DNA of 64,000 nucleotides from Escherichia phage vB_EcoM_SP1. Below the pieces are notes generated by a model that saw nothing but the letters and a program-made list of their open reading frames with translations, did no database searches and was not told the DNA's origin. This document shows, one piece after another, positions 31,580 to 54,193 of the stretch. The stretch is from sequence record MT682709.1; one strand, given 5' to 3'. Each line of letters starts with the position of its first letter. Positions within the stretch are counted from its first letter, which is position 1. Made by a program: the position numbers and the translations under genes.

Positions 31580-32264
<685 letters not shown>

Positions 32265-32276
32265 TTTCACAAAGTT

Positions 32277-32306
32277 ATTTACACGGGGTTTTAGTAGTGA
32301 TACTAT
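32277..32306 (+). promoter_or_regulatory. early promoter (-35 ATTTAC, extended -10 TGaTACTAT)
   Basis: 18-bp spacing between elements. Confidence 0.55.
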
Positions 32307-32994: not shown

Positions 32995-33024
32995 GTTTAC
33001 TTTTCGATGGGGTAGTGATATTAT
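32995..33024 (+). promoter_or_regulatory. early promoter (GTTTAC ... TATTAT)
   Basis: -35/-10 elements with 18-bp spacing. Confidence 0.55.
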
Positions 33025-33622: not shown

Positions 33623-33695
33623 TGGGAATTAGCCAAGTTGGTAAGGCACTGGATTTTGATTCCAGGATGCAAAGGTTCGAGTCCTTTATTCCCAG
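33623..33695 (+). tRNA. tRNA-Gln (anticodon TTG)
   Basis: Cloverleaf read by hand: acceptor TGGGAAT/ATTCCCA, anticodon loop TTTTGAT. Confidence 0.85.
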
Positions 33696-33696
33696 C

Positions 33697-33783
33697 GCGA
33701 GAATGGTCAAATTGGTAAAGGCACAGCACTTAAAATGCTGCGGAATGATTTCCTTGTGGGTTCGAGTCCCACTTCTCGCACCA
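33697..33783 (+). tRNA. tRNA-Leu (anticodon TAA), CCA encoded
   Basis: Acceptor GCGAGAA/TTCTCGC, anticodon loop CTTAAAA, long variable arm. Confidence 0.85.
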
Positions 33784-33788
33784 AATTT

Positions 33789-33862
<74 letters not shown>

Positions 33863-33872
33863 ATTTAATTTA

Positions 33873-33946
33873 CTCCGTGTAGCTCAGTTTGGTAGAGCGC
33901 CTGATTTGGGATCAGGAGGTCCAAGGTTCAAATCCTTGTATGGAGA
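33873..33946 (+). tRNA. tRNA-Pro (anticodon TGG)
   Basis: Anticodon loop TTTGGGA, T-arm GGTTCAAATCC. Confidence 0.85.
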
Positions 33947-33948
33947 CT

Positions 33949-34038
33949 GGAGGCGTGGCAGAGTGGTTTAATGCACCGGTCTTGAAAACCGGCAGTCGCT
34001 CCGGCGACTCATAGGTTCAAATCCTATCGCCTCCGCCA
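33949..34038 (+). tRNA. tRNA-Ser (anticodon TGA)
   Basis: Acceptor GGAGGCG/CGCCTCC, anticodon loop CTTGAAA, long variable arm. Confidence 0.85.
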
Positions 34039-34043
34039 GTTTT

Positions 34044-34119
34044 GTTGATTTAGCTCAGTAGGTAGAGCACCTCACTTGTAATGAGGACGTCGGCGGTTCG
34101 ATTCCGTCAATCAGCACCA
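34044..34119 (+). tRNA. tRNA-Thr (anticodon TGT)
   Basis: Acceptor GTTGATT/AATCAGC, anticodon loop CTTGTAA. Confidence 0.85.
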
Positions 34120-34120
34120 A

Positions 34121-34195
34121 GGCCCTGTAGCTGGAAGGTTCAAGCAAGCGACTCATAATCGCCAGATGGTGGTTCAATTCCACCCAGGGCCACCA
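34121..34195 (+). tRNA. tRNA-Ile (anticodon CAT, T4-type) or Met
   Basis: Acceptor GGCCCTG/CAGGGCC, anticodon loop CTCATAA. Confidence 0.75.
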
Positions 34196-34204
34196 AATTA
34201 ATTT

Positions 34205-34291
34205 GGGGAGTTATCCCGTAGAGGTAGCGGTGTGGACTGTAAATCCATTGTCATTGCGACTCGGGTGGTTCGACTCCATCACTCCCCACCA
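34205..34291 (+). tRNA. tRNA-Tyr (anticodon GTA), type II
   Basis: Acceptor GGGGAGT/ACTCCCC, anticodon loop CTGTAAA, long variable arm. Confidence 0.7.
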
Positions 34292-34295
34292 ATTT

Positions 34296-34370
34296 GGATG
34301 TGTAGCTCAATGGCAGAGCGATCGCCTGTTAAGCGATTGGTTATAGGTTCGAATCCTATCACGTCCGCCA
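34296..34370 (+). tRNA. tRNA-Asn (anticodon GTT)
   Basis: Acceptor GGATGTG/CACGTCC, anticodon loop CTGTTAA. Confidence 0.75.
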
Positions 34371-34374
34371 AATC

Positions 34375-34450
34375 CGAGGCATAGCTCAGAAGGAAGAGCA
34401 AGGACCTTCTAAGTCCTAGGTCGTAGGTTCGATCCCTACTGCCTCGACCA
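34375..34450 (+). tRNA. tRNA-Arg (anticodon TCT)
   Basis: Acceptor CGAGGCA/TGCCTCG, anticodon loop CTTCTAA. Confidence 0.75.
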
Positions 34451-35151: not shown

Positions 35152-35241
35152 AGTTTGAATCACTCGGATAACGCTGTTACGGATAATAACAAAGTAATAA
35201 ATAATTAATAACCAACTGATAGATTATTTCAAGGATTTTAA

Positions 35242-35805
35242 ATGAAAACTTATGCCGAATTTTTAACCGAAGCAGCAAAATTACCATCTGAAGCAGATCT
35301 TACTAAAGTATTCTTTCAATTAGACCCAAAAGACCGTGGCGATTTTCTTAAGTGGAAAGCTAAAGCTATTGAAATGTATAACATCGATAATAGTTCTTTT
35401 ACGATGAGTCAAGAAAATAAATTCAATAAAGCATTTTTCAAAATTTCTAAGAAATTGGCATCTGGCGCTCAGGTTCCTAAATCTGCATTAGCTACTCCTG
35501 AACGTGCACCTGTTAAAATTTCTAAGAATATGTTCGACACTAAAAAATACGTTAATGCTTTGAATAAAGCTCTTGATGCATTGGATGATGCAAAGAAGGC
35601 AGCCCGTGATCTTCAAGACGTGTACACTGATTTTGATCGTAAAACTAAAGGTTCTATTTCAAATAGCGAACGTAATAGTGTAAGTGTTTATTCTGATAGC
35701 CTTGATGTTCTTGGCGATGCGTATACTGAAATTAAAAATCGTATTAACACCGCATCTAAGCTAAAAGCTGCCGCAGAAGCTATAATAACTAAACTGGATA
35801 AATAA
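35242..35805 (+). CDS. internal-protein-like ORF with capsid-targeting sequence (MKTYAEFLTE/A)
   Basis: 187 aa; N-terminal CTS; lysine-rich helical body. Confidence 0.65.
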   Translation: MKTYAEFLTEAAKLPSEADLTKVFFQLDPKDRGDFLKWKAKAIEMYNIDNSSFTMSQENKFNKAFFKISKKLASGAQVPKSALATPERAPVKISKNMFDTKKYVNALNKALDALDDAKKAARDLQDVYTDFDRKTKGSISNSERNSVSVYSDSLDVLGDAYTEIKNRINTASKLKAAAEAIITKLDK

Positions 35806-35811
35806 TTTTAA

Positions 35812-35838
35812 AGCCCTATCTAAATGATAGGGCTTTTT
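35812..35838 (+). terminator. intrinsic terminator
   Basis: 9-bp stem AGCCCTATC/GATAGGGCT followed by TTTTT. Confidence 0.8.
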
Positions 35839-35971
35839 GGTATCTCGGCCTTTCTGGACCTCTCTAGGCATCATTTAGTTTCTACCCTTTATAATATATT
35901 ATCCTATCCTTTAATTGCCCCTTCCATCCCTAGAATTCCCTAAAACTTTTTAAAAATTTTTTCACAAAACT

Positions 35972-36001
35972 GTTTACATCCCTGTTCTTCCATGGTACTA
36001 T
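35972..36001 (+). promoter_or_regulatory. early promoter (GTTTAC ... TACTAT)
   Basis: 18-bp spacing; leader shared with the promoters at 52169 and 53608. Confidence 0.6.
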
Positions 36002-36044
36002 ATCAATATCAACTACTGATACAGAAAACAACTTGGAGAATGAA

Positions 36045-36308
36045 ATGGATAATTACGGCGAACTGTTCAACTTCTTTATGAAATGCGTTTCAGAAGATTT
36101 CGGTCGTACAGTTAATGATATTAAAGTTATCGGTCCTGACCATCCGATGTTTGAAACTTACGCAGTAATGGGTAATGAAGACGGTCAGTGGTATACTGTA
36201 AAAGTTGTGATTAACATGTTCACTGCTGAAGGTTATGTTAAACTGTCTTCTAAAGTTTACCATGATAACGACGAAATCGCAGAAGAATATTTCAATAATA
36301 TGAAATAA
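36045..36308 (+). CDS. hypothetical protein
   Basis: 87 aa from ATG 36045 after GGAG; the track ORF begins at a TTG. Confidence 0.55.
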   Translation: MDNYGELFNFFMKCVSEDFGRTVNDIKVIGPDHPMFETYAVMGNEDGQWYTVKVVINMFTAEGYVKLSSKVYHDNDEIAEEYFNNMK

Positions 36309-39627: not shown

Positions 39628-40430
<803 letters not shown>

Positions 40431-40431
40431 T

Positions 40432-40461
40432 GTTTACTTCCTCCAAGGACTTTGATACTAT
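40432..40461 (+). promoter_or_regulatory. early promoter (GTTTAC ... TACTAT)
   Basis: 18-bp spacing, upstream of denV. Confidence 0.6.
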
Positions 40462-40488
40462 ACATTCATCAACTACTTGGAGGAAATT

Positions 40489-40902
40489 ATGACTCGTATC
40501 AATTTAACACTTGTTTCTGAACTGACCGACCAACATCTTATGGCTGAGTATCGTGAATTACCACGCGTATTTGGTGCAGTCCGTAAACATGTTCAAAACG
40601 GTAAACGTGTAAAGGATTTTAAAATCTCTCCAACATTTATCTTAGGCACAGGTCACGTAACATTCTTTTACGACAAACTCGAATTTTTACGTTTACGTCA
40701 AATCGAGCTAATCGCTGAATGCTTGAAACGTGGTTTCAAAATCAAGGACACGACTGTCCAGGATATTTCCGACATCCCTGTCGAATTTCGTAATAATTAT
40801 GTCCCGTCCGAAGCGTCCATTGCGATAAGTCAAGCTCGCTTAGATGAAAAAATTGCTCAACGCCCTACTTGGTACAAATACTATGGTAAATCAATTTACT
40901 AA
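40489..40902 (+). CDS. denV: endonuclease V (pyrimidine dimer DNA glycosylase)
   Basis: 138 aa from [29 protein letters not shown], matches recalled T4 EndoV. Confidence 0.92.
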
Positions 40903-40908
40903 GGAAAA

Positions 40909-41169
40909 ATGAAAATGTATCAAGAATTTATCGCTGAAGCAGATGCCAAAGGCCCCAAATTTAAAGTTAAAGCTTTCGTTGGTGATGCAGAAGATTTTGG
41001 CTCATTAAAACGTAATGGGTATTCTTTCCTAGGCGGCGATGGTAGAGAAATAAACACCTATGCAAAACGTAGTGAAATTGCTTATGTTGTAGCAAGCCCT
41101 AAAGTAGATGTTGACGATATTGGATATGATTTTAACAACTTCGGAATTATTTCTGGCGGTAAAGCTTAA
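40909..41169 (+). CDS. internal-protein-like ORF with capsid-targeting sequence (MKMYQEFIAE/A)
   Basis: 86 aa; CTS plus (I/L)xE cleavage site. Confidence 0.65.
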   Translation: MKMYQEFIAEADAKGPKFKVKAFVGDAEDFGSLKRNGYSFLGGDGREINTYAKRSEIAYVVASPKVDVDDIGYDFNNFGIISGGKA

Positions 41170-41172
41170 ACA

Positions 41173-41202
41173 GTTTACGCTTAAGTATTAATATGATATA
41201 AT
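41173..41202 (+). promoter_or_regulatory. early promoter (GTTTAC ... TATAAT)
   Basis: 18-bp spacing. Confidence 0.6.
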
Positions 41203-41232
41203 TACTCTATCAAAACAAACAAGGAAACAAAA

Positions 41233-41811
41233 ATGAAAACGTATCAAGAATTTATTGCTGAAGCTTCTGTAGTAAAGGCAAAAGGCATTAATAAGGACGA
41301 GTGGAACTATCGTGGTGGAAACGGCTTTGACCCTAAAACTGCTCCACTTGAACGATATCTAGCCACAAAAGCTTCTGATTTTAAAGCCTTCGCTTGGGAA
41401 GGACTTCGCTGGCGTAACGATCTAAATATTGAAGTTGACGGACTTAAATTTGCTCATATTGAAGATGTTGTTGCTAGTAACTTAGATGCAGCTTTTGTTA
41501 AAGCCGACAGTGATCTTCGTCGCTGGAATTTAAAACTGTTCTCTAAACAAAAAGGCCCGAAGTTTGTGCCTAAAGCCGGTAAATGGGTCATTGATAATAA
41601 ATTAGCTAAGGCTGTCAACTACGCTGGTCTTGAATTCGCCAAGCACAAATCATCATGGAAAGGTCTTGATGCAATGGCTTTCCGTAAAGAATTTGCCGAT
41701 GTTATGGCTAAAGGCGGCTTTAAGGCAGAAATAGATACCTCTAAAGGTACGTTTAAGGACGCTAATGTTCAGTACGCTTATGCCGTTGCTAATGCAGCCC
41801 GTGGTAATTAA
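41233..41811 (+). CDS. ipIII: internal protein III-like (CTS MKTYQEFIAE/A)
   Basis: 192 aa; T4 IPIII size and CTS. Confidence 0.7.
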   Translation: MKTYQEFIAEASVVKAKGINKDEWNYRGGNGFDPKTAPLERYLATKASDFKAFAWEGLRWRNDLNIEVDGLKFAHIEDVVASNLDAAFVKADSDLRRWNLKLFSKQKGPKFVPKAGKWVIDNKLAKAVNYAGLEFAKHKSSWKGLDAMAFRKEFADVMAKGGFKAEIDTSKGTFKDANVQYAYAVANAARGN

Positions 41812-41852
41812 TAAGGCCTAAGTATAGGCCTATTTACATTTAAAGGAAACAT

Positions 41853-42155
41853 ATGAAAACATATCAAGAATTTATTACTGAAGCGCGAGTGAGTGCAGGT
41901 AAATTAGAAGCCGCTATAAATAAAAAGGCCCATTCATTTCACGATTTGTCCGATAAAGACCGTAAGAAACTTGTAAGCCTTTATATTGACAAAGAGCGTA
42001 TTCTCGCTCTTCCTGGCGCTAATGAAGGTAAACAGGCCAAGCCTTTGAATGCTGTCGAAAAGAAAATTGATAACTTTGCTTCTAAATTCGGTATGTCTAT
42101 GGATGACCTTCAGCAAGCGGCTATCGAAGCAGCTAAAGTAATTAAAGGTAAATAA
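41853..42155 (+). CDS. ipII: internal protein II-like (CTS MKTYQEFITE/A)
   Basis: 100 aa; T4 IPII size and CTS. Confidence 0.7.
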   Translation: MKTYQEFITEARVSAGKLEAAINKKAHSFHDLSDKDRKKLVSLYIDKERILALPGANEGKQAKPLNAVEKKIDNFASKFGMSMDDLQQAAIEAAKVIKGK

Positions 42156-42157
42156 CA

Positions 42158-42187
42158 GTTTACTTTCTCCTAAAATTGTGATAGTAT
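42158..42187 (+). promoter_or_regulatory. early promoter (GTTTAC ... TAGTAT)
   Basis: 18-bp spacing. Confidence 0.5.
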
Positions 42188-42427
42188 ATTCATAATTACT
42201 TAGAGAGGTAAAATGACTCGATGAAAAAATTTTAATGAAGCCACACTGGTATAAGTATTAAGGCAAAAATATTTACATTCAAATAACATGGGAACAACCT
42301 GGACCTCATGATTCTATGAGGGATTCCCGCCAACCTGTAATAAGGTCGAGCCCAAGTGCGGTAATGGGTAAATACAGAAATGGACAATTCATGTGCCATG
42401 GAATGGCCCAAATTTAGAGAGAATAAA

Positions 42428-44424: not shown

Positions 44425-44454
44425 GTTTACTTTTCCTCTTGACTGTGGTATAAT
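44425..44454 (+). promoter_or_regulatory. early promoter (GTTTAC ... TGgTATAAT) upstream of regB
   Basis: 18-bp spacing. Confidence 0.6.
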
Positions 44455-44481: not shown

Positions 44482-44943
44482 ATGACTATCAACACAGAAG
44501 TTTTTATCCGTCGAAATAAGCTCCGTCGTCACTTTGAGTCGGAGTTTCGTCAAATTAACAATGAGATTCGTGAGGCATCAAAAGCAGCAGGGGTCTCATC
44601 GTTTCATCTAAAATATTCTCAACATCTTCTTGATCGTGCAATTCAACGGGAGATTGATGAGACATATGTTTTTGAATTATTCCATAAAATAAAAGACCAT
44701 GTTTTAGAAGTTAATGAATTCCTAAGTATGCCTCCGCGTCCTGACATTAATGAGGATTTTATTGATGGGGTTGAATATCGTCCTGGGCGTTTAGAAATCA
44801 CCGATGGAAATCTTTGGCTTGGATTTACAGTTTGTAAACCTAACGAGAAGTTCAAAGACCCGTCACTTCAGTGCAGGATGGCAATTATCAACAGTCGTCG
44901 TTTACCGGGAAAGGCTTCTAAAGCAGTAATTAAAACTCAATGA
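44482..44943 (+). CDS. regB: site-specific endoribonuclease RegB
   Basis: 153 aa; matches recalled T4 RegB (MTINTEVFIRRNKLRRHFESEFRQINNE...). Confidence 0.8.
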   Translation: MTINTEVFIRRNKLRRHFESEFRQINNEIREASKAAGVSSFHLKYSQHLLDRAIQREIDETYVFELFHKIKDHVLEVNEFLSMPPRPDINEDFIDGVEYRPGRLEITDGNLWLGFTVCKPNEKFKDPSLQCRMAIINSRRLPGKASKAVIKTQ

Positions 44944-50122: not shown

Positions 50123-50644
50123 ATGTTTATTTCAAGTGGAAGTGGTTTAATTCGTGTTGAATTTAAAAATGACATCTTCCTTATTCAAGGAGATGATATT
50201 ATTAAAATGAGTTATGACGAAATCAAGAAAATTTGTCATGCTCTTGAAATCCGTGGAAAAGTAAATGCTACTATCGATATAGGTGATTTATGGGTGACAC
50301 TTTATGAAGTATCCGAAGGATTTAACATTGAAGATGAAAACAACATCTTAGCTATTGATAAAAGAAGTGATTTGTTTGATGTGTTAAAAGTTTATGAACA
50401 GTCAAACGGTGGAAGAAAAGCTGCATTGATTTATCAAAAACCACATTCATGTGGAACTGCTTCAATCGTTTCAAATATTGAAGATGAAACTGATACTTAT
50501 ATGTGTGTTTTAAAAGCTGGTGGTGACCGTCATCCGGATTTTATTTCTATTCGTCAAAACAATGGAGAAATTTCATTATCAAAATCAGAAGCTGAAGCTA
50601 TGATTAAGTATTTAACAACTGTTACACCTTCAATGAAAGGATAA
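50123..50644 (+). CDS. hypothetical protein (paralog pair, member 2)
   Basis: 173 aa; paralog of the 49571 ORF. Confidence 0.55.
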   Translation: MFISSGSGLIRVEFKNDIFLIQGDDIIKMSYDEIKKICHALEIRGKVNATIDIGDLWVTLYEVSEGFNIEDENNILAIDKRSDLFDVLKVYEQSNGGRKAALIYQKPHSCGTASIVSNIEDETDTYMCVLKAGGDRHPDFISIRQNNGEISLSKSEAEAMIKYLTTVTPSMKG

Positions 50645-50646
50645 TT

Positions 50647-51108
50647 ATGATTATTAATGAAAGCTCTTGGCATTATAAATTATTCAAAATGTTTAACGAC
50701 GAATGGAAACGACCTAAGACACTGTGTGCATACTTTTGGTCTATTGTTATTCCTACATTTTTCGTTTCTTTTTTCGGATGTACTATACTCGCAGGTCTAA
50801 CTATCATCTGTGCAGAAATCATGCAGAAATGGCTTATTTTTGGTAGTTTATGGACTCTTATTCCATCAGCATTTATACTTGCCATTTTGCTTGTTTTACT
50901 TATTATTGGTTCATTTGTTATTCCTGCACAACTGCGTGAAAAATATAAAGATTATAAATGGAAAAAGGATTATGCTTTACATGTAGAAAATATTGATAGG
51001 GCGTATAAAGGTTTACCTCCTATTCAACCAAAGAAATCTATTATCGTCGAATTTTTAAAAGCGCGTAAAGCTAAAGTATGTCCTGTTATTGAATATAAGG
51101 CTAAATGA
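50647..51108 (+). CDS. integral membrane protein
   Basis: 153 aa, three predicted TM helices. Confidence 0.55.
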   Translation: MIINESSWHYKLFKMFNDEWKRPKTLCAYFWSIVIPTFFVSFFGCTILAGLTIICAEIMQKWLIFGSLWTLIPSAFILAILLVLLIIGSFVIPAQLREKYKDYKWKKDYALHVENIDRAYKGLPPIQPKKSIIVEFLKARKAKVCPVIEYKAK

Positions 51109-52118
51109 TGAAAACAATAATGAAAAGCTATTTTGGTAGTCATCTTTATGGAACTTCTACTCCAGAATCTGATGTAGATTTTAAAGAAATCTTTGTTCCT
51201 CCTGCTCGTGATATTCTTATCGGAAATGTTAAAGAGCATATGAGTAAAAACACTAACAACACATCATCTAAAAACACCAAAGATGATATTGACCATGAAC
51301 TATACAGTCTTAAATATTTCTTTAAATTAGCAGCAGATGGTGAAACTGTAGCATTGGATATGCTCCACACTCCACCTGAACTGGTAGTTAAATCTGATTT
51401 GCCTGATGTATGGAAGTTTATTCAAGACAATCGTTCACGGTTTTATACAACTAACATGAAATCCTATTTAGGATATGTTCGCAAGCAAGCTTCTAAATAT
51501 GGTGTTAAGGGTTCTCGTTTGGCCGCATTGCGTGATGTATTGAAAGCAGTTAATCAAATCCCTGATCAGTGGGTTGATTACCAAGAAGACGGTTCCATTA
51601 AGCAGCGTCGAACTAAAGTAGAAGATATTAAGCATCGTCTTCCAGAAAACGAGTTCTGTGAATGGGTATTCCATAATCATGAGAAAACAGGCCCGCAAAC
51701 GTTCTATACTGTGTTGGGTCGTAAATATCAGACAACACTTTCTCTTATTGAGCTTAAGCAGTCTTTGAATAAACTTGATGCTGAATACGGCGAACGTGCT
51801 CGTAAGGCTGAAGCGAATGAGGGTATTGACTGGAAAGCACTGAGCCATGCTTGTCGTGGTGGACTCCAACTATTGGAAATTTACAAAACTGGTGACTTGG
51901 TTTATCCACTCCAAGATGCTCCATTTATTCTCGATGTGAAGTTGGGTAAACATCCATTTAAAACGATCCAAGAGTTTTTGGAAGATGTGGTCGATCAAGT
52001 AGAAGCAGCATCCATTGAAGCTTCTAAGAACGGTATGCAGCAAAAAGTAGACATGGGTTTCTGGGATGACTTCCTTGAGAGGGTTTATCTTGAAAACCAC
52101 CGAAGTTATTATAAATAA
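51105..52118 (+). CDS. nucleotidyltransferase-fold protein (Pol-beta superfamily)
   Basis: N-terminal GSHLYGTSTPESDVDF matches the GS...[DE]h[DE]h NTase motif; 337 aa with helical C-terminal half. Confidence 0.55.
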   Translation: MMKTIMKSYFGSHLYGTSTPESDVDFKEIFVPPARDILIGNVKEHMSKNTNNTSSKNTKDDIDHELYSLKYFFKLAADGETVALDMLHTPPELVVKSDLPDVWKFIQDNRSRFYTTNMKSYLGYVRKQASKYGVKGSRLAALRDVLKAVNQIPDQWVDYQEDGSIKQRRTKVEDIKHRLPENEFCEWVFHNHEKTGPQTFYTVLGRKYQTTLSLIELKQSLNKLDAEYGERARKAEANEGIDWKALSHACRGGLQLLEIYKTGDLVYPLQDAPFILDVKLGKHPFKTIQEFLEDVVDQVEAASIEASKNGMQQKVDMGFWDDFLERVYLENHRSYYK

Positions 52119-52120
52119 AA

Positions 52121-52147
52121 AGGGAGCCTTCGGGCTCCCTTTTTATT
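52121..52147 (+). terminator. intrinsic terminator
   Basis: AGGGAGCC-ttcg-GGCTCCCT followed by TTTTATTT. Confidence 0.8.
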
Positions 52148-52168
52148 TCAAAATTTTTTCACAAAACG

Positions 52169-52198
52169 GTTTACAAGCATAAAGCTTTATGGTACTAT
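52169..52198 (+). promoter_or_regulatory. early promoter (GTTTAC ... TACTAT)
   Basis: 18-bp spacing; leader near-identical to the 35972 and 53608 promoters. Confidence 0.6.
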
Positions 52199-52232
52199 AC
52201 AACTATCAACTGATACGGATTTGGAGAATAAA

Positions 52233-53201
52233 ATGAAAACTGTAACTATCAATAAGGGTATCTACTTCGGTAAAGAAATCTCTGGAACTTTTGAGCTCTT
52301 AGGCGAATGGTTCCCAGATAATGCTCCGGTAGATGCACAAGGAGATGGTAAAGTTTTTGTTGAAATTGACGGTAAACGTCGCGGTGTTTGGGTTTACAAA
52401 TCAGATATTTCATATGATGGTGTAAAAGTTGAAGAAGTTAAAGAATCATATGAAGATATGAAAATCCGCATTAATAAAAGATTTAATGTTATGGGAATGA
52501 TGACGAATGGTATTATTAATGGAAATATTCGTTCATTAATTATCTCTGGCGCAGCAGGTATTGGTAAAACGTATTCTTTAGATAAAGCTTTGAATAAAGC
52601 AAATGATATTGGATACATTGAATATAAAAGCATTAATGGTAAAATCTCTGGTATTGGTCTTTATGAGCAGCTTTGGAATAATCGTGAAGAGAATTCTGTC
52701 CTTTTGATTGATGATGTGGATGTTTTCTCTGATATGGACATTCTTAATCTTCTAAAAGCTGCTCTGGACACTGGAGAGACCCGTAAAGTCTGCTGGAGCA
52801 CTGCATCTTCTTACTTAGAAGAAAAAGGCATTGACCGTGAGTTTGAATTTAAAGGAACGATTGTTTTTATCACAAACGTTGACATTGACCGCGAATTAGA
52901 CCGTGGTACTAAACTTGCCCCACACTTACAAGCATTGGTGTCCCGCTCAGTTTATTTGGATTTGGGTGTTCACACTAATGAAGAAATTATGGTCAGGGTT
53001 GAAGATGTTATTCTTTCAACTGACATGATGCAAAAGCGCGGTCTTTCTGATGAAGAAACTTATAAAGCATTATCATGGATGAAAGTTAATGTTAATCGTT
53101 TACGCAATGTTTCACTGCGTACTGCTCTTTATCTTGCTGACTTTATTATGACCGACAAAAACGGTTGGGAAGAAATTGCTGAGGTTACTCTTCTGAAATA
53201 A
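52233..53201 (+). CDS. AAA+/P-loop ATPase
   Basis: Walker A SGAAGIGKT, Walker B VLLIDDVD; ATG 52233 after GGAG; the track's TTG start discarded. Confidence 0.6.
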   Translation: MKTVTINKGIYFGKEISGTFELLGEWFPDNAPVDAQGDGKVFVEIDGKRRGVWVYKSDISYDGVKVEEVKESYEDMKIRINKRFNVMGMMTNGIINGNIRSLIISGAAGIGKTYSLDKALNKANDIGYIEYKSINGKISGIGLYEQLWNNREENSVLLIDDVDVFSDMDILNLLKAALDTGETRKVCWSTASSYLEEKGIDREFEFKGTIVFITNVDIDRELDRGTKLAPHLQALVSRSVYLDLGVHTNEEIMVRVEDVILSTDMMQKRGLSDEETYKALSWMKVNVNRLRNVSLRTALYLADFIMTDKNGWEEIAEVTLLK

Positions 53202-53290: not shown

Positions 53291-53605
53291 ATGGAGGTAG
53301 TGATGTTATACTCAAAGGCTCGTGAAATTTACGAAACTAAAATTAAAGAAGCAGTATTTCAATTCGCAACGACAATGCGATGGACAAATGACTGGGAGTA
53401 TTCAAAAAATCATAAGAAGCCCATGGTGACAAGAAAGGCTCATATGTTAGTGTTAATAGACCGTGAGCAGATTAAAGCCCGAGAAGCTCTCCAGAATCAT
53501 AAAAAGGCTGCCTTTGAATGGTTTATGGATAACACTGCTCCTGAGACTAAGAAAGCGGTAAGCGCATGGTTCAGTGGAAAAAATTGTGAAAGAAGTTTCT
53601 TTTAG
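53291..53605 (+). CDS. hypothetical protein
   Basis: 104 aa. Confidence 0.5.
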   Translation: MEVVMLYSKAREIYETKIKEAVFQFATTMRWTNDWEYSKNHKKPMVTRKAHMLVLIDREQIKAREALQNHKKAAFEWFMDNTAPETKKAVSAWFSGKNCERSFF

Positions 53606-53607
53606 TG

Positions 53608-53637
53608 GTTTACAAGACTGTTCCTCTGTGGTACTAT
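53608..53637 (+). promoter_or_regulatory. early promoter (GTTTAC ... TACTAT)
   Basis: 18-bp spacing. Confidence 0.6.
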
Positions 53638-53665
53638 ACAACTATCAACTACGGAGGAACAGAAA

Positions 53666-54193
53666 ATGAACGCTAAAGATATTTTCAACCTGGTAAATTA
53701 CAACGATGGTAAATTTAAATCTGAAGCACAAAGTAAGTTCTTTAACGACATCTCAATCGGAGGTGAAATCACTGTTGATGGAGGACAAATTTACAAATCC
53801 CGTTGGAATTGGATCGTTATTATCGATGAGATTGGTATTGTAGAAATTTACAAGAATACGAATAAAAATCGTACATTACACTGGTCTCGTGATACTAACG
53901 AACAGTACAAAAAGGATAAAGCATCTAAAATGTCTCGTGTAACTCAAGAAGATATTGAGTTCATCAAGAAAGATATTTTAATGTATGATAACTTAATTGC
54001 TGAAGAGCAAGCTGTTATTGATAAATTTGATGAGATTAAAGCTTCTCGTGAAATTCCTGATTTTATGAAAGAATCAGTAAATGAACGATACTCTCTCATT
54101 TCAGAGCGTATTGAAACTTACAAAAAGCAAAGAGCTGAACGCCAAAATACTCTTCGGAAGTTTGAAGAACGGTTAAAGACGGTACTCGCATAA
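53666..54193 (+). CDS. hypothetical protein
   Basis: 175 aa, charged C-terminal helix. Confidence 0.55.
   Translation: MNAKDIFNLVNYNDGKFKSEAQSKFFNDISIGGEITVDGGQIYKSRWNWIVIIDEIGIVEIYKNTNKNRTLHWSRDTNEQYKKDKASKMSRVTQEDIEFIKKDILMYDNLIAEEQAVIDKFDEIKASREIPDFMKESVNERYSLISERIETYKKQRAERQNTLRKFEERLKTVLA

Follow-up and report, generated by a model that had tools for sequence, protein, structure and literature searches.

Early promoter cassettes upstream of e.8, nrdC.10 and nrdC.8 in a T4-like coliphage probably belong to a dispersed family kept alike by recombination or gene conversion

In front of a small early gene at about 36 kb in the window, i.e., the whole 64,000-nucleotide stretch of DNA analysed here, lies a promoter-like sequence that recurs at about 52.17 and 53.61 kb, which raises the question of why three dispersed sites should be alike over more than the two hexamers of a promoter. 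The first-pass annotation had read these sites as an early promoter with its leader, and had suggested either that a regulatory cassette had been duplicated or that the sites share a leader element; the strings that it quoted were all recovered where it had placed them. We consider it most probable (roughly 0.9) that the three sites are T4-type early promoter cassettes of the PeSL form which have been homogenised by recombination or gene conversion, and for which we infer start sites and activity from the sequence and from T4. The cassettes are real but ordinary, as they have already been described for T4-like phages.

By its sequence, the window belongs to a Tequatrovirus, one of the T4-like coliphages. 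Hundreds of T4-like phages match its e.8 region at 94–98% identity. Barring a few indels, the early half is collinear with T4, with ~92% identity. The orientation of the window is opposite to that of the T4 reference. The late structural genes are on the minus strand as far as ~28.8 kb, beyond which the early genes occupy the plus strand. The three cassettes, referred to here as copies 1, 2 and 3, are followed directly on their 3' side by the following genes:

36045 to 36308, plus strand: e.8 (87 aa; phrog_2678), downstream of copy 1
52233 to 53201, plus strand: nrdC.10 (322 aa; weak AAA-type NTPase signals), downstream of copy 2
53666 to 54193, plus strand: nrdC.8 (175 aa), downstream of copy 3

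All three copies consist of GTTTAC, an 18-nt gap and TACTAT preceded directly by TGG. The 18-nt gap corresponds to 17 bp between the sigma-70 hexamers, and the promoter scanner accordingly gave TTTACA-17-TACTAT for copy 1. The elements of copy 1, together with the nearest hairpin, are:

35811 to 35838, plus strand: terminator-like hairpin AAAGCCCTATC...GATAGGGCTTTTT, after a 187-aa ORF (35242 to 35805)
35942 to 35971, plus strand: A/T-rich UP-element-like tract AAAACTTTTTAAAAATTTTTTCACAAAACT, from sequence and alignment
35972 to 35977, plus strand: -35 element GTTTAC (the sigma-70 hexamer TTTACA is 35973 to 35978)
35993 to 36001, plus strand: extended -10 TGG with -10 hexamer TACTAT, from a pattern scan
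36008 to 36044, plus strand: predicted 37-nt 5' leader AUCAACUACUGAUACAGAAAACAACUUGGAGAAUGAA, its start placed at the seventh nucleotide after the -10
36035 to 36045, plus strand: Shine-Dalgarno and RegB/S1-type site GGAGAATGAAA, 10/11 against GGAGRAYARAA

The hairpin at 35811–35838, which the scanner had scored on the minus strand and which reads on the plus strand as a GC stem followed by TTTTT, lies 134 nt upstream of the -35 element and is the nearest one to copy 1. No stem-loop was found close to the promoter of this copy, and no significant local fold was predicted for it. Copy 2 has the classic PeSL layout, with the T tract of a terminator hairpin entering its UP-like tract:

52113 to 52148, plus strand: intrinsic-terminator hairpin of nrdC.11, a 16-bp stem followed by a T tract, abutting the UP tract of copy 2
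52150 to 52168, plus strand: UP-element-like tract AAAATTTTTTCACAAAACG, from the alignment of a repeat family
52169 to 52174, plus strand: -35 element GTTTAC, from a pattern scan
52190 to 52198, plus strand: extended -10 TGG with TACTAT, from a pattern scan
52205 to 52232, plus strand: predicted 28-nt 5' leader AUCAACUGAUACGGAUUUGGAGAAUAAA, with a predicted MFE of 0 kcal/mol
52223 to 52233, plus strand: exact RegB/S1 consensus GGAGAATAAAA, overlapping the Shine-Dalgarno sequence and the A of the ATG

Copy 3 is placed tightly behind the preceding gene and carries an inverted repeat:

53608 to 53613, plus strand: -35 element GTTTAC, beginning 3 nt past the nrdC.9 stop codon (53603 to 53605)
53629 to 53637, plus strand: extended -10 TGG with TACTAT, from a pattern scan
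53644 to 53665, plus strand: predicted 22-nt 5' leader AUCAACUACGGAGGAACAGAAA, with the Shine-Dalgarno sequence GGAGG at 53653 to 53657
53618 to 53662, plus strand: inverted repeat CTGTTCCTCTGTGGT / ACTACGGAGGAACAG, with the -10 and the start site in its loop and the Shine-Dalgarno sequence in its 3' arm

An UP-like tract is absent from copy 3, the upstream sequence of which shares only 10–17 of 39 positions with those of the other copies. This copy has no convincing similarity upstream of the -35 element because the coding sequence of nrdC.9 has its 3' end in this stretch.

A three-way alignment showed identity outside both hexamers rather than similarity confined to them, which bears out the earlier claim that the likeness extends into the leader. 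Common to all three copies are (A/G)TGGTACTATA, then a 4-nt stretch that differs in copy 1, and then ATATCAACT; the shared region includes the block ACAACTATCAACT from -6 to +9, as well as parts of the spacer and TGG-TACTAT. Copies 1 and 2 also have AAAATTTTTTCACAAAAC(T/G) in common upstream of the -35 element and, in the leader, TGATAC(A/G)G...TTGGAGAAT(G/A)AAATG, which reaches into the start codon, their leader similarity continuing down to the ribosome site GGAGAAT(A/G)AAATG. The UP regions of these two copies are identical at 22 of 30 positions, the best value among 105 promoter pairs, and the segment 35949–35978 forms a repeat family with 52146–52175 (93%) and 32254–32283 (77%). The shared sequence takes in spacer and leader positions that are not explained by any RNA polymerase contact.

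A chance origin of the repeats is excluded. The degenerate 21-mer GGTACTATAYMAMTATCAACT occurs three times, always on the plus strand (35994, 52191 and 53630), versus 0.01 occurrences expected from shuffles, and GTTTAC-N(14-20)-TACTAT occurs six times in the window versus 0.08 expected. The likeness was also set against the background of the promoter family itself by shuffling each alignment column across the window's 15 early promoters (2000 shuffles; non-hexamer positions only; ungapped). For e.8/nrdC.10 and for e.8/nrdC.8, 38 of the 65 positions agree, a value that the best pair reached in only 23 of the 2000 shuffles, while the nrdC.10/nrdC.8 pair shares 33 of 65 (ungapped), which is within the promoter-family background.

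The 15 promoters were obtained with a simple scan, which found them on the plus strand of the early region from 32277 to 56588, and their consensus is GTTTAC...tgTG.TA.tAT.....TATcaa. As (C)TATCAA is found at the start site in many of them, it is a trait of the family and not special to the three copies. The three-site module described initially is real, but it is no isolated triplet; the window holds at least 15 early promoters, and these three make up one subfamily of them. Each of the three sites aligns base for base with the T4 site upstream of e.8, nrdC.10 or nrdC.8, at ~95–100% identity, and this orthology, together with the full anatomy of T4-type Pe promoters, supports the assignment as early promoters. 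That the T4 counterparts are themselves documented early promoters appears likely from our own scan and from one annotated promoter name. The 22-mer core TGGTACTATACAACTATCAACT is present in exact form in T4 upstream of ndd.6, motA, e.8, nrdC.10, nrdC.8 and imm.1, and near copies with 3–4 mismatches lie upstream of frd.3 and ndd.4 and in the motB-cef spacer, whereas late-gene DNA holds no copies of the core. With six exact and three near copies in T4, the idea of a duplicated regulatory cassette has held up well. The family is also widespread, a 201-nt query around copy 1 giving 2540 matches in 587 phage records, or about four per genome, and T4-like genomes in IMG/VR having up to six exact core copies each.

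Upstream of the -35 element, copies 1 and 2 share AAAAATTTTTTCACAAAAC, an A/T-rich tract placed where an UP element would lie (~-40 to -60). It was judged to fit the UP-element consensus of E. coli (Estrem et al. 1998). Separately, TTTTTCACA in the UP tract fits a loose DnaA-box consensus, probably a coincidence in A/T-rich DNA. The early promoters of T4 are UP/-35/TGn/-10 promoters with further consensus regions (review, Hinton 2010, PMC2988021), and the cassettes of the window show the same -35 element, 17-bp spacing, TGn, TAnnAT -10, A/T-rich UP element and extra consensus, with the same placement in front of early genes on the early-transcribed strand. They depart from this pattern in that copy 3 is without an UP-like tract and in that the discriminator of the window's e.8 copy is ATCAAT versus ACAACT, neither of which is a functional difference.

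On this anatomy, unmodified host sigma-70 RNA polymerase would read the cassettes immediately after infection, with the alpha C-terminal domains presumably bound to the A/T-rich UP-like tract of copies 1 and 2, GTTTAC(A) acting as the -35 element and TGG-TACTAT as an extended -10. Transcription would begin at the A seven bases past the -10, i.e., at 36008, 52205 and 53644. The rule used here, by which the start is the seventh base after the -10, reproduces Pe133295, the sole promoter name in the T4 reference annotation; all three predicted starts are A, and the predicted leaders of 37, 28 and 22 nt begin with AUCAAC. A literature search found no genome-wide start-site data for T4. The sequence around +1 does not seem to fit the published preference for NAD capping.

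A T4 middle (MotA-dependent) promoter was also considered for these sites and rejected. The MotA box, (a/t)(a/t)(a/t)TGCTTtA, is centred at ~-30 and replaces the -35 element (PMC2988021), whereas all three copies have GTTTAC at -35 and no MotA box at -30. The sole GCTTTA, at 52184–52189 in copy 2, is misplaced for a MotA box, as it lies 3 nt from the -10.

PeSL elements in T4 and PST comprise an AT-rich tract, TTTACW-N17-TAYWAT, a Shine-Dalgarno sequence, an ATG and a stem-loop (Comeau 2014, PMC4122927), and such cassettes have been linked to gene exchange in variable early regions, the ndd.4/.5 locus being an example (PMC4122927). The cassettes described here resemble PeSL (Arbiol 2010, PMC2839356; PMC4122927) in being the same composite, in occurring as many dispersed intergenic copies in variable early regions, and in gene replacements, seen in other phages, whose homology ends inside the cassette; the TTTACW-N17-TAYWAT consensus of T4 and PST fits all three copies. 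They differ in that copy 1 is without a stem-loop near its promoter and in that copies 1–3 are collinear with T4. The formation of mini-circles has been demonstrated in RB49 and phi1 but not with T4-type cassettes.

How the copies are related to one another changes from segment to segment. The nrdC.10 and frd.3 cassettes of T4 are identical from -35 to -10 (30/30) and match at only 16 of 40 leader positions, their 18-nt spacers being identical and followed by abrupt divergence. The leader of nrdC.10 is instead close to those of ndd.6 (37/40) and imm.1 (36/40), with which it has only 20–21 of 30 positions in common from -35 to -10, and the spacer of imm.1 matches those of e.8 and nrdC.8 at 27 of 30 positions each. 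A comparable switch is found within the e.8 copy of the window. Upstream of the -10 this copy is identical to T4 e.8 at 59 of 60 positions, while downstream of it the sequence is TATATCAATATC, with 59/61 identity to the T4 motB-cef copy versus 56/61 to T4 e.8; the TATATCAATATC variant sits at the motB-cef site in T4 and in two other genomes. Elsewhere, an nrdC.8-type cassette occupies the ndd.4 site of one genome, and in some Tequatroviruses the nrdC.8 cassette carries TATTAT-TACCCT, as does the window's promoter at 32995.

Cassettes of this type also mark places where genes have changed. At the imm.1 and ndd.6 positions of some phages the same cassette stands before a different gene, with homology to T4 stopping a few bases past the ATG, and the same cassette type lies at junctions at the imm.1, ndd.6 and ndd.4 positions of other genomes. 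Within the window, the early promoters at 40432 and 42158 are at insertion, deletion or replacement junctions, whereas at copies 1–3 the window is collinear with T4, so that this genome shows no visible exchange event there. A comparison of RB69 with the window over the 22-nt core gave 19/22 within genomes and 18/22 between genomes, which is too close to argue either way. The mosaic pattern fits recombination or gene conversion, which we infer to be the homogenising process. The likeness beyond the polymerase contacts would then reflect common descent, upheld by recombination or gene conversion among dispersed copies, and the cassette, as a PeSL mobile regulatory cassette, would double as a homology patch for the shuffling of early genes. 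For the invariant block from -13 to +6, functional constraint could be at work instead of gene conversion.

A sceptical reader might hold that the copies became alike by convergence only, through independent optimisation of the sites for polymerase, ribosome and RegB, with neither shared ancestry nor exchange. Functional elements (UP tract, -35, TGn, -10 and the Shine-Dalgarno/RegB site) do account for much of the shared sequence, TATCAA is found at the start of many unrelated early promoters of the window as well, and the nrdC.10/nrdC.8 pair is not above the family background. However, the other two of the three pairs exceed 98.8% of the column shuffles, and variant patches at orthologous sites match paralogs elsewhere. 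Given the identical spacers of T4 nrdC.10 and frd.3, which end in abrupt divergence, and the segment-by-segment switches in paralog similarity, pure convergence on polymerase contacts is insufficient, and we regard it as decidedly unlikely. That the repeats derive from a small transposable element, as its ends or remnants, or are targets of a homing endonuclease, is hardly credible. Such an origin would suit the dispersal of the copies, and homing endonuclease genes (segB, mobD) are common in the corresponding region of T4, but segB and mobD are absent from the window, which has nevertheless retained its cassettes. Moreover, every copy is oriented with early transcription and placed precisely so that a stop codon or terminator precedes it and a ribosome site follows, with no terminal inverted repeats, no target duplications and no associated enzyme gene.

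Two further readings assign the shared sequence a function of its own. The invariant block from -13 to +9 (TGGTACTATACAACTATCAACT) might be an operator for a phage factor, e.g., an agent of early-promoter shut-off, the mechanism of which is called not understood in reviews (PMC2988021; PMC3014915), and the block is identical in the six T4 copies and in every copy recovered elsewhere while UP tract and spacer vary. This seems unlikely to us, since most early promoters are likewise shut off and are without the block beyond TATCAA, the window's own e.8 copy deviates within it, and gene conversion alone can explain the identity; the genome searches demanded an exact match, so that the invariance of the recovered copies is partly circular. 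A structured cis-regulatory RNA in the leader of all three mRNAs, e.g., a riboswitch, an attenuator or a protein-binding hairpin, was a possibility raised by the first-pass annotation with its shared leader element, and ~30 nt of leader are indeed common to copies 1 and 2, but copy 3 shares only the first 9 nt. From the predicted starts, the leaders have MFE values of 0 to -0.6 kcal/mol (z +0.1 to +1.4) and thus no fold beyond that of shuffles; with ~30 nt of coding sequence the values are -2.9 to -4.5 kcal/mol. No Rfam family reached its threshold at the three sites, the whole window yielding only 10 tRNAs at gathering scores and permissive scans around the sites only sub-threshold matches, which fell on the terminator hairpin. 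We therefore think such an RNA very improbable. What survives of the shared leader element is a shared leader sequence, unstructured from the predicted start, and not a folded RNA.

Since the leader is unstructured and ends in a RegB-type ribosome site, the shared element within these early promoter cassettes is best understood as a block at the start site together with a ribosome site sensitive to RegB. The optimal target of RegB/S1 in T4 is GGAGAAUAAAA, with the consensus GGAGRAYARAA (Durand 2006, PMC1702504). Exact matches to this consensus number three in the window versus 0.39 expected, and all are at early-gene start codons. Copy 2 has the exact GGAGAAUAAAA, which ends at the start codon, while 10 of 11 positions match in copy 1 and 8 of 11 in copy 3, with GGAGGAACAGA; the T4 nrdC.8 site is reported to be only moderately cleaved (PMC1702504). 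In the predicted primary transcripts these sites would be single-stranded, as in a RegB/S1 target, and the endoribonuclease is encoded in the window, with an early promoter of its own in front at 44425:

44482 to 44943, plus strand: regB endoribonuclease gene (Pfam PF10715, E = 1.2e-68)

The RNAs would thus start with AUCAAC and carry unstructured leaders of 22–37 nt ending in a GGAG(A/G) ribosome-binding site, a putative target of the RegB/S1 endonuclease (exact in copy 2) made from regB at 44482–44943. RegB would presumably cleave the early mRNAs of this phage too, and so inactivate them a few minutes into infection.

The inverted repeat of copy 3 concerns RNA that enters the cassette from upstream. 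Its 15 bp join 53618–53632 with 53648–53662, around a loop that spans the -10 and the start site, and the predicted folding energy of the read-through RNA is -27 kcal/mol (z -5.2), a value reached by 0 of 200 shuffles; for the T4 ortholog of the repeat it is -23.9 kcal/mol (z -5.3). The predicted pairing probability of GGAGG is 1.0 in the read-through RNA versus 0.19 in RNA started at 53644, and when the promoter part was shuffled 50 times this pairing was never reached. A predicted hairpin of this kind, between the spacer and the Shine-Dalgarno sequence, is clear in copy 3. The pairing in copy 1 is marginal (0.99 versus 0.16; 3 of 50 shuffles), and copy 2 has no such pairing (15 of 50 shuffles). 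Of the window's 15 early promoters, 7 have a significant hairpin over the -10, and among 38 T4 early promoters the ribosome site is predicted to pair in 8 at 0/50 shuffles and in 12 at ≤2/50. At the nrdC.8 site of Dhakavirus the spacer TCTCCAGTAG pairs with CTACTGGAGG, while in Mosigvirus the partner, CTTTTAGTTG, lies upstream of the -35 element; the predicted pairing would thus sequester the nrdC.8 ribosome site in Tequatrovirus, Dhakavirus and Mosigvirus, with a different 5' partner in each.

From these predictions we tentatively suggest that, in a subset of cassettes, the promoter spacer may double as an anti-Shine-Dalgarno sequence, such that read-through RNA would be closed and RNA from the gene's own promoter open; we would not count on this holding. 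Sequestration by a hairpin that contains a promoter is listed only for e, soc, 49 and I-TevI, which have late promoters (Uzan and Miller 2010, PMC3014915), and the authors of PeSL described stem-loops between or over the promoter boxes but treated them as terminators (PMC2839356). As in the e, soc, 49 and I-TevI hairpins, the Shine-Dalgarno sequence of copy 3 is predicted to pair with sequence upstream of the start site. In those known cases the promoters are late and translation is delayed until late in infection, whereas the internal promoter of copy 3 is early, so that translation would be restricted to the earliest transcripts. If true, the arrangement would be an early-gene mirror image of the late-promoter hairpins, and it would tie the translation and the RegB sensitivity of a gene to the firing of its own early promoter. 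The hairpin of spacer and anti-Shine-Dalgarno sequence, in copy 3 and at other early promoters, is the only part of the present results that might repay experiment.

The current understanding of these phages is unchanged by the result. For the annotation, the gain is a set of 15 promoter positions with predicted start sites in the window. The early region is organised as in T4, where strong, near-identical promoter-leader cassettes drive small early genes, and the cassettes would at the same time be the homology patches by which T4-like phages swap accessory genes.

The window differs from T4 in several segments; the features of these segments and two further genes, nrdC.11 and nrdC.10, are listed here in window coordinates.

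33623-34450, ten consecutive tRNA genes (Gln, Leu, Gly, Pro, Ser, Thr, Met, Tyr, Asn, Arg)
35154-35814, ~660-bp segment absent from T4, directly upstream of the e.8 promoter region
35242-35805, 187-aa ORF inside that segment, matching phrog_2280 (unknown function)
40477-40902, denV-like gene, only ~79% identical to T4 denV
50123-50644 and 50647-51108, two ORFs replacing mobD, between mobD.1 and nrdC.11
51105-52118, nrdC.11, RlaP nucleotidyltransferase family match (PF10127, E = 2e-11)
52233-53201, nrdC.10, weak P-loop NTPase/STAND signals below threshold (residues 96-201)

The tRNA cluster holds ten genes, compared with eight in T4, and segB, which lies within the T4 cluster, is missing. The T4 homing-endonuclease gene mobD has given way to two unrelated ORFs (50141-51104). 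Within 40134-42290 the gene order departs from that of T4, with the denV-like gene standing before ipIII and ipII rather than after them; this region also carries additional internal-protein-like ORFs, and its breaks in T4 homology coincide with two early promoters, 40432 and 42158.

The 187-aa ORF found no match in a Pfam search; it has an internal-protein-like N-terminus and is followed by a hairpin. Seven gene starts in the window (32343, 32676, 35242, 40149, 40909, 41233 and 41853) share the pattern ATGAAAAC(A/G)T(A/T)T..GAATTTAT...GAAGC, which in protein form reads MKT(F/Y)(K/Q)EFI..EA and resembles the N-terminus that targets internal head proteins to the capsid. Internal-head-protein PHROGs were matched by two of the ORFs.

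The small early gene frd.3 has changed position between RB69 and T4. In RB69 its homolog (L030 21052-21279) is flanked by e.8 and e.6, whereas in T4 frd.3 adjoins gene 32, ~76 kb away, with a promoter cassette of the type found before e.8, nrdC.10 and nrdC.8 upstream of it. RB69 retains the T4-type core TGG-TACTAT-ACAACTATCAACT at the e.8 promoter only; its dominant early-promoter subfamily (L030 16536-39665) is distinct, reading ...taggactATGT-TATAGT-AGTCCTATCAAAAC, and has a start region complementary to the spacer.

The nrdC.10 cassette stands between the neighbouring genes nrdC.11 and nrdC.10, and its promoter spacer is a perfect 14-bp palindrome, CATAAAGCTTTATG (52179-52192), which is shared with the T4 frd.3 promoter and for which fold prediction gave no significant RNA structure. 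Upstream of the -35 in the e.8 and nrdC.10 cassettes, the A/T-rich UP-like tract contains TTTTTCACA (35956-35964 and 52154-52162), matching the loose DnaA-box consensus, TTWTNCACA; in A/T-rich DNA this fit is probably coincidental.

At many early promoters in the window the -10 sits in the loop of an inverted repeat, as at 53618-53662 for the nrdC.8 promoter (53608), and the promoters at 32995, 36309, 40432, 42158, 44425 and 49409 are also among those with such repeats. The Shine-Dalgarno sequence falls within the 3' arm of the repeat at 40432 (denV), 44425 (regB) and 53608 (nrdC.8), a placement by which the ribosome site would be hidden in read-through RNA and exposed in promoter-initiated RNA. 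At nrdC.8 the predicted sequestration is kept in three phage genera, Tequatrovirus, Dhakavirus and Mosigvirus, with a different 5' partner in each.
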